Of a stretch of 64,000 nucleotides of DNA, positions 11,823-12,274 are shown in pieces. The notes beneath the pieces were generated by a model that did no database searches, was not told the DNA's origin, and saw only the letters and a program-made list of their open reading frames with translations. The DNA is from Candidatus Poribacteria bacterium. GTDB lineage: Bacteria > Poribacteria > WGA-4E > PCPOR2b. Numbering within the stretch: the stretch's first letter is position 1; every line of letters starts with the position of its first letter. The translations under genes and the position numbers were made by a program. The stretch lies in contig OY762266.1 in the NCBI GenBank assembly GCA_963665285.1, positions 1,088,001 to 1,152,000 of the forward strand, in the 5' to 3' direction.

Positions 11823-11921
11823 CAGCAAACAACGGTTTCGATTTGCGAAGTGACCATCACCCTCCCCGGTAGGGCAGATAGGAATTGAACTTACGATAAC
11901 GCAAAACCGTGCAGCTCGCTG
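11823..11921 (-). ncRNA. Y-RNA-like unit 4 (gene-proximal), 99 nt
   Basis: Minus strand CAGCGAGCTGCACGGTTTTGCGTTATCG...TTCAATT...CGCAAATCGAAACCGTTGTTTGCTG: terminal stem, inner stems ACGGTTT/AAACCGT and TTTGCG/CGCAAA, weak T-loop-like hairpin. Confidence 0.65.
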
Positions 11922-11928
11922 TGTGTGC

Positions 11929-11999
11929 TTTGATGGTGAACAAGGGTTGCATATGGGGGCTTAAGAGGCGATAACCCATACTATCAGCTCACCATCAAA
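11929..11999 (-). ncRNA. Y-RNA-like unit 3, minimal 71 nt
   Basis: Minus strand TTTGATGGTGAGCTGATAGTATGGGTTATCG...CCCATATGCAACCCTTGTTCACCATCAAA: long terminal stem with bulged GAGC(T)GA/TTGTTC helix. Confidence 0.7.
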
Positions 12000-12002
12000 A
12001 TG

Positions 12003-12153
12003 TTGAGTGAAAAAGGGGGCAGGTGTTCGTGTTTTAGCGTGTTAGCCAATTCCACTACACCACTCACGGTACGAAGCTGAGGTTAAGTGGCGGGATTCAA
12101 ACCCGTATCTCTCGATTTCCGGTCGATAGCGGATACCAATTCAACTCACTCAA
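12003..12153 (-). ncRNA. Y-RNA-like unit 2 with permuted tRNA-like domain (YrlA-like), 151 nt
   Basis: Terminal stem TTGAGTGA/TCACTCAA; T-arm CGGG-TTTGAAT-CCCG precedes a loop-closed acceptor-like stem CCACTT/GAGTGG and a D-arm TAGTGGAATTGGCTAACAC. Confidence 0.75.
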
Positions 12154-12155
12154 GA

Positions 12156-12274
12156 TTGTGGGCGAACAAGGGTGTGAAATGAGGCTGACCCCGATTCATT
12201 CATCGGGGCTGGAGATTTGAACTCCTAACCAAAAAGGTTATTTCCGATAACTCATCTCTATCAGCTCGCCACAA
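12156..12274 (-). ncRNA. Y-RNA-like unit 1 (gene-distal), 119 nt
   Basis: Minus strand TTGTGGCGAGCTGATAGAGATGAGTTATCG...GGAG-TTCAAAT-CTCC...GCCCCGAT/ATCGGGGT...CTCATTTCACACCCTTGTTCGCCCACAA. Confidence 0.72.

Follow-up and report, generated by a model that had tools for sequence, protein, structure and literature searches.

From bacteria to humans, the bulged base of Y RNAs is regarded as almost invariably C and residue 187 of Ro60 as almost invariably His, and the accepted model for Y RNAs has one Ro60 dock several partners. Among the bacterial forms, YrlA is known from Salmonella Typhimurium, Mycobacterium smegmatis and more than 250 bacteria and phages (Rfam RF02553; PMC4201824; bioRxiv 10.1101/312249). 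PMC4201824 describes it as a 5′ GNCGAAN0-1G motif and a YUAY motif starting the V loop, followed by a T arm, a closed acceptor stem and a D arm, and reports several RNAs per rsr locus cut from one precursor. PMC4030889 and PMC11277228 call His187 indispensable for the contact with Y RNA. For the Ro60 of a Thermus phage, phiLo, which acts with host PNPase, PMC12135203 reports that a change of the bulged C to U raises KD from 16.6 to 49 nM. Since this loss is about 3-fold, U sites can still bind, a canonical-type site being made weaker and not dead.

The window analysed here is the whole 64-kb stretch of DNA. On its minus strand, from 12274 to 11823, four units were found with gaps of 2, 3 and 7 nt directly 5′ of rsr: U1 (12156-12274, 119 nt), U2 (12003-12153, 151 nt), U3 (11929-11999, 71 nt, but 90 nt in other strains including genome G004) and U4 (11823-11921, 99 nt). 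These are the lengths and the tiling given by the first-pass annotation, which had been made from the sequence alone. It had also placed the end of the last unit at the rsr ribosome-binding site, and indeed the 3′ end of U4 stops 4 nt short of the predicted site AAGGGG (11813-11818, minus strand), with the rsr ATG at 11808. Folding confirmed that each unit closes on its own 5′/3′ terminal stem, the stem sequence differing from unit to unit as had been described. MFE z-scores against 200 dinucleotide shuffles were −5.1 for U1, −1.6 for U2, −4.0 for U3 and −2.5 for U4. The shared 5′ skeleton was recovered as a regular expression with 16 matches in the 6.26-Mb genome, four of them the array units within 350 bp and the other 12 scattered singletons.

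U1 consists of a Ro helix GAGC-U-GA/UUGUUC, an 8-bp helix, GUUAUC, a V hairpin, a T arm GGAG-UUCAAAU-CUCC and a closed acceptor-like stem of 7-8 bp, with the D arm absent. U2 has the whole YrlA layout: Ro helix GAGU-U-GA, YUAY, V arm, T arm, a perfect closed 7-bp acceptor stem (CCACUUA/UGAGUGG) and a D arm that we take to be tRNA-Leu-like. U3 is a short YrlB-like hairpin with Ro helix GAGC-U-GA/UUGUUC and without a tRNA-like domain. In U4, where the arms were assigned by eye, a Ro helix GAGC-U-G and GUUAUC are followed by a degenerate T arm, an acceptor-like stem and a D-like hairpin. The YrlA order of T arm, closed acceptor stem and D arm is therefore complete in U2, lacks the D arm in U1, is degenerate in U4 and has no counterpart in U3. 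The 5′ end of U2 resembles its own acceptor-stem 5′ strand with a GAAUUGG D-loop after it (12082-12153 compared with 12060-12039), so that the first 72 nt can alternatively be folded as an ordinary cloverleaf (21.7 bits on the Rfam tRNA model). This likeness may reflect an origin by tandem tRNA duplication or an alternative fold.

Some proposed elements turned out to be familiar. The conserved GUUAUCG element is present, GUUAUC following the inner helix in U1, U3 and U4 and GCUAUC in U2 (GUUAUC in the G004 copy), but it is not new, being the known YUAY motif of YrlA (PMC4201824) and the UUAUC of animal Y RNAs and sbRNAs (PMC4726728). The inserts, put forward as interchangeable effector modules, are not novel either, being mainly YrlA-type tRNA-like T, acceptor-stem and D arms. 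The 3′ motif UUGUU(C/U) is degenerate in the 151-nt unit, as stated, in the source genome (UUUUUC), but it reads UUGUUC in G004 and in contigs of all four DNA runs. Likewise, the T-loop C56 equivalent is U in the source-genome U2 and C in that of G004.

Each of the four units has a Ro60/TROVE gene less than 4 kb away on its own strand, a long 5′/3′ terminal stem with a bulged Ro-binding helix (with one U2-core mismatch in the source genome) and YUAY/UUAUC after the inner helix. The Yrl 5′ motif GNCGAAN0-1G with its bulged C was found in none of them: U replaces C in all four, and the GNCGAA position reads GCUGAU, GUUGAA or GCUGCA. The bulged base aside, they qualify by these features as Yrl-type Y RNAs.

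Independent covariance models gave the same picture. Models R1 and R2 were built from 55 short and 16 YrlA-like units of other rsr loci, chosen by a pairing rule, with the source genome (G000) and G004 excluded; control rsr loci were taken from among the Ro60 matches listed in metagenome and viral contigs, plus genome loci. In the 64-kb window R1 scored U3 at 32.4 bits (E 8e-7) and U4 at 10.5 bits, and U3 was its sole match at E<=1 in a genome search in which 150 of 1077 candidates were scored. R2, run on the first 40 kb of the window, gave 42.1 bits for U2 (E 6e-10), 24.7 for U1 (E 5e-5), 20.9 for U3 and 10.9 for U4, and 49 bits for the G004 copy of U2. Although the E-values are rough, U2, U1 and U3 were the top window matches of models built without array sequences; U4 was weak on both (E 0.4-1.5). 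Judged by motifs, folds and models, the four units are bacterial/phage-type Y RNAs of the YrlA/YrlB type; the first-pass annotation had already taken them for Y RNAs.

Searches with Rfam recovered no Y RNA family on the array, either at the gathering threshold or at E<=10, and the array falls below the RF02553 (YrlA) cut-off of 69 bits. At this cut-off RF02553 also matched none of 15 control rsr loci, in which R1 and R2 find many units, so its miss on the array carries little weight. CGAA-based searches and the Rfam YrlA model overlook many Y RNAs. The sole Rfam gathering-level match in the window was a tRNA-Sec at 28369-28462. Pair counts in the unit alignment A2 exceeded those of shuffles, but they are not counted as evidence because the units had been preselected by the pairing rule. 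Between the array units of G000 and G004 there was no two-sided compensatory change.

Across 100 rsr loci all 172 R1 matches were on the rsr strand, and a descriptor survey of Ro60 loci, which includes false matches, gave 262 sense vs 41 antisense matches. At least four units were present in 24 of 113 non-redundant loci, a count based on incomplete unit calls (in L003, two of four passed). Since tandem arrays are this common, the array itself is ordinary; skeleton and tandem arrangement appear general at Ro60 loci, and tandem Y RNAs beside rsr being already known, the array as such adds little. Five to 10 Y RNA units each were seen in the phage rsr loci L121, L215, L152, L112 and L141, with no Rfam YrlA match where tested. 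Their Ro helix is conserved on both strands, against a published claim of conservation of the 5′ strand only in bacteria. One viral contig (L151:1208-1535) encodes an RNase P RNA and a large group of clustered tRNAs beside its Y RNA array and Ro60.

A repeat family had been named in advance as one reading that would count against Y RNAs. The array DNA is single-copy in the source genome, and among 159 genomes of the order it was matched only in G000 and G004, the remaining matches listed being an upstream MITE; the units are thus no REP/MITE family. This candidate was rejected, as many dispersed copies unlinked to rsr were not encountered in the genome and order searches.

In both G000 and G004 the array is part of a cassette with the order tRNA-Leu(TAG), small ORF, U1-U4, rsr and then host sequence again, all features being on the minus strand. 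The tRNA-Leu(TAG) is a foreign remnant here (12718-12776), with 34 nt including the 5′ strand deleted, and is near-complete in G004; the cassette tRNA-Leu scored 37 bits in L003. The small ORF (12358-12710) encodes 76 aa in G004 but is interrupted here by a MITE and an early stop codon, and family and homologue searches with it found nothing. The MITE-like repeat within it (12571-12689) has inverted ends and a 9-bp direct repeat and is absent from the G004 cassette. It is represented by 109 blastn pieces in the source genome, with matches in all 19 other genomes of the genus. An IS4/Tn5-type transposase gene lies at 15457-16839 of the window.

The host gene upstream is rpsT, encoding ribosomal protein S20 (12802-13071; Pfam Ribosomal_S20p). 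The window Ro60 and its cassette were found in only two of the 20 genomes of the genus. The cassette is absent from 17 of the 19 genus genomes with rpsT, and in these a homologue of the gene at 9130-10122 lies within 1.5 kb after rpsT. That gene is Cys-rich with multiple CxxC motifs, has no Pfam match and is 76-88% conserved behind rpsT in all 17. After the rpsT stop, 14 of the 17 cassette-free genomes have a two-armed hairpin (by eye; two were folded), eight of them with a run of at least five T. G000 and G004 kept the 5′ arm of this terminator-like hairpin (12777-12783, at the left cassette junction) and lost the 3′ arm at the insertion. By this comparison the cassette is a recent, horizontally acquired insertion that replaced half of the rpsT terminator-like hairpin. 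Neither an integrase nor an att repeat was seen at the cassette.

In FastTree analyses the window Ro60 paired with P0002 (66%) inside a 27-row clade of metagenome proteins, separate from the native Ro60 clade of the other Poribacteria genus. Of the 24 proteins P0004-P0027, 16 are encoded on contigs 65-272 kb long, sizes that fit large phages. The cassette is probably phage-derived, and a piece of a phage tRNA/Y RNA/Ro60 region may have been captured by illegitimate recombination. The P0004-P0027 clade, which holds the closest His187 relatives, presumably has a C bulge. Viral contigs scanned with the window protein, P0013 and P0002 yielded no relatives or only those of about 40% identity, and no Ro60 of more than 40% identity was found in any cultured phage. 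The insertion would provide a dated case of a phage-type RNP module entering a bacterial chromosome without an integrase.

The rsr gene (10147-11808) is intact and encodes 553 aa with Pfam TROVE and vWA_Ro60 domains. Its product matches human, Xenopus and Deinococcus Ro60 structure chains at E 1e-82 to 1e-100, which bears out the earlier assignment as Ro60/TROVE. It keeps K170, R174, D181 and R184, which together with H187 we take to be the Y-RNA-binding residues of Ro60. The set is incomplete, as the site of the Y-RNA-contacting His187 of vertebrate Ro60 is occupied by Arg (codon 11248-11250, minus strand; alignment to the 1YVP/9NEN chains and column tallies). Residue 187 is His in 25 of the 27 nearest Ro60 relatives. 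Arg187 was found in 10 of 10 cluster members covering the site, among the members listed (15 of 26), and also in P0003 and P0002. The only relative found in the genome collection is that of G004 (locus L001, 96% identity). P0003 is a broken Ro60, frameshifted, 354 aa long and 95% identical to the window protein, and split Ro60 genes were seen in two genomes of the other Poribacteria genus (G084:C70 and G100:C1). Neither rtcB nor rtcA was found beside rsr, unlike in the rsr-yrlBA-rtcBA RNA repair operon; the RtcB of the genome is about 2 Mb away. At G000:C1:3136941-3139778 the RtcB matches fall into two separate stretches of a single 999-aa open frame, suggesting an insertion of intein size.

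The bulge of the Ro helix is U in all four array units. The first-pass annotation had read it so, and the base is unusual: among 150 R1-aligned units, training units included, C was found in 142 and U in 8, and A or G was hardly seen in model-aligned units. For a comparison with the protein, 307 units were called from four model alignments, with 59 ambiguous matches set aside and two loci without a usable protein dropped, and residue 187 was called from a multiple alignment of 120 proteins. Of the 553 alignment columns, position 187 tracked the U/C state best, with His in 97 of 109 C loci and one of nine U loci (p 1.4e-6, uncorrected for kinship or number of columns). After removal of proteins >90% identical, 113 loci remained. 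Those with His187 comprised 90 C, two mixed and one U, those with Arg187 five U and one C, those with Lys187 three U and seven C, and those with Ser or Gly four C. Arg or Lys187 thus occurs in eight of nine U loci, and also in eight of 102 C loci; His187 is kept in 90 of the 102 C loci, and lone U units occur in two His187 loci. The U loci are uniform, every called unit having U despite unrelated stems. Three of the nine came from DNA-pattern scans for U that were blind to the protein, and three are close kin.

On a FastTree tree from which the trait columns had been removed, the U bulge arises about six times. Six independent pairs were concordant 4.3 times and opposite 0 times on average, but the tree-corrected sign test was not significant (median p 0.125, range 0.06-0.5), so that the covariation of bulge and residue 187 can only be called suggestive. 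The sole U locus with His187, L212 (four of four units U), has Arg186, whereas its close sister L211 (five of five units C) has Asp186 and His187. The two Ro60 proteins differ by ten changes in residues 100-260, Asp186-to-Arg among them, and this near-isogenic pair of phage contigs amounts to a natural swap experiment. Counted post hoc, Arg or Lys at 186 or 187 is present in nine of nine U loci vs eight of 102 C loci. A phage clade (L158, L251 and L252, from G180, G176 and G177) has all-U Y RNA arrays and Arg187, and its Ro60 also deviates at the otherwise invariant positions 340, 348, 366 and 367. The three DNA-pattern scans for U bulges returned, respectively, three matches without Ro60, six loci (five rsr-linked, two already in the set) and 16 loci, of which R1 confirmed only contigs already in the set. 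A separate scan, with a DNA pattern made from the array motifs, gave three viral matches, and no Ro60 lay in the locus of any of them.

The U bulge in all units together with Arg187 likely reflects a matched change in Ro60-RNA recognition. The first-pass annotation had noticed neither Arg187 nor the way it covaries with the U bulge, nor that the cassette had inserted into the rpsT hairpin. Tentatively, and as a reading that is less likely than not, we suggest a recognition code in which a bulged C is matched by His187 and a bulged U by a basic residue at 186 or 187. It would have switched about six times independently, mostly in phages, to give pairs partly orthogonal to the canonical one. A sponge-symbiont-type bacterium would then have captured a U/Arg pair and, through deletion of one half of the rpsT terminator, brought it under the promoter of a ribosomal-protein gene. 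Loci in which both the bulge and residue 187 have changed, repeatedly, offer ready-made swaps for how Ro60 reads its RNAs. No report of such covariation was found in the literature covered; key structural papers and reviews lie outside that coverage, and the latter may mention U variants. No paper on Poribacteria Ro60 was found.

Instead of a matched change, loss of His187 might simply have dropped the preference for C in real Y RNAs, U then spreading by drift and by duplication or conversion of units. The Lys187 loci, mostly C (seven against three U), fit this explanation, as does the scarcity of A and G bulges, which a pyrimidine-tolerant pocket would produce; C-to-U is moreover a common transition, at the roughly 3-fold cost given in PMC12135203. 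However, Arg187 loci are U in five cases and C in one, all called units of the U loci share U in spite of their unrelated stems, and L211 and L212 differ in all units with a new Arg adjoining His187. We therefore regard simple relaxation as rather unlikely. A silent or decaying phage relic, with units defunct as RNAs, is less likely again, although erosion is visible. The source genome has lost 34 nt of the tRNA-Leu and a 19-nt hairpin insert of U3, both kept by relatives, and its small ORF carries the MITE and stop. Compared with G004, U2 has three pair-breaking changes on the source-genome side and a T loop altered from UUCGA to UUUGA, and in U4 pairs are broken on both sides. In P0003, which comes from a near-identical source, the protein is frameshifted and 354 aa long, and only two of 20 genus genomes keep the cassette.

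Against decay stands the conservation of rsr and of parts of the array. With dS 0.11 and dN/dS 0.16 between G000 and G004, rsr is under purifying selection. Eight of the array's 262 paired sites had changed, compared with 17 of its 178 unpaired ones (p 0.006). This count was made with hand-drawn helices for one genome pair, and the U2 core is off by one in it without effect on substitution class. In U1 and U3 together none of 120 paired sites changed, vs 10 of 70 unpaired sites (U1: 0 of 76 and four of 43). In the strains of RNA-library runs X16 and X17 the small-ORF region has been replaced or is skipped, yet U1/U2 are retained; in one X17 contig that skips the region, 17 changes fall within 243 nt of U1/U2 and 47 within 303 nt of the rpsT part. 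By these patterns U2 and parts of the cassette are eroding in the source genome, and U1 and U3 are not. Degenerate tRNA genes, or an rsr 5′ leader such as an autoregulatory Rsr-binding element at the ribosome-binding site, would leave no released RNAs at all. The cloverleaf score of the first 72 nt of U2 (21.7 bits, under the 29-bit cut-off), a tRNA-Ser call on the 5′ part of U2 in G004 at a relaxed ARAGORN threshold and the end of U4 4 nt from the ribosome-binding site point that way. Yet the cloverleaf has a broken D stem and C in place of U33, the permuted T-acceptor-D fold reaches 42-49 bits on the YrlA-like model, and homologous units elsewhere also lie downstream of or far from rsr. This alternative is very improbable.

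We consider it probable, from the combined sequence comparisons, that the four units, as Y RNA genes of the YrlA/YrlB type, came in together with rsr on a single foreign cassette, probably derived from a phage, and that they likely make up a functioning Ro60-Y RNA set whose bulged C has become U along with the change of His187 to Arg. In such a set, read-through from rpsT would transcribe the array and rsr as one precursor; a polycistronic precursor had been proposed for the locus and matches the known pattern (PMC4201824). Nucleases would release four single RNAs, the 7-bp acceptor stem of U2 being a potential RNase P target as in M. smegmatis YrlA. Rsr would bind the terminal helix of each RNA on the outer Ro60 surface, Arg187 being suited to U, and thereby stabilise the RNA and gate the Ro60 ring. 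The tRNA-like domain might serve as a gate for the ring or as a tether for host factors such as PNPase, as in the Deinococcus RYPER complex (10.1101/312249). All these steps are extrapolated from known systems. A promoter-like site (13161-13132, 10/12) lies before rpsT, in a promoter scan at chance level (6 vs 4.8). The only terminator-like site on that strand is in the MITE, with counts again at chance level. Contigs from three of four RNA-library runs cover parts of the array; as neither strand nor ends are visible in them, they are no proof of transcription.

Among known systems, YrlA is the most similar. The array adjoins rsr on the same strand, its units have the terminal stem with the Ro site and YUAY, and the V, T, closed acceptor-stem and D arms follow in order, completely in U2 and partially in U1 and U4; the 7-bp acceptor stem of U2 recalls M. 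smegmatis YrlA in particular. Unlike YrlA, the array lacks GNCGAA, its Ro helix is conserved on both strands (UUGUUC), U1 has no D arm and RF02553 misses it. Like the short Y RNAs of the YrlB/Yrn2 type (PMC4201824), U3 is a long hairpin that bears the Ro helix but lacks a tRNA-like domain, and it stands in tandem with YrlA-type units; it differs by its bulged U and a variable hairpin insert, kept in other strains and deleted here. The rsr locus of Deinococcus radiodurans (Yrn1, Yrn2 and RNAs a, b and d) likewise encodes a tRNA and more than one small RNA upstream of rsr. A polycistronic precursor has been reported there, and RYPER is formed by Rsr, Y RNA and PNPase; a PNPase gene is also present in the source genome. 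The arm orientation of Yrn1 is different, however, and the window cassette is a recent insertion behind rpsT. With Thermus phage phiLo (Yrl1 and Yrl2) the locus shares a phage-type Ro60 and Y RNAs directly upstream, but phiLo uses CGAA and loses affinity 3-fold on the C-to-U change (PMC12135203), whereas U is natural in the window array. Another Poribacteria genus, g7 (L004-L008 and L177-L199), in which 34 of 40 genomes have their own Ro60 with C-bulge arrays, shares two to four tandem units of the same skeleton ending just before rsr. Its Ro60 nevertheless forms a separate clade (about 45% identity), with His187, a C bulge and canonical T and D arms.
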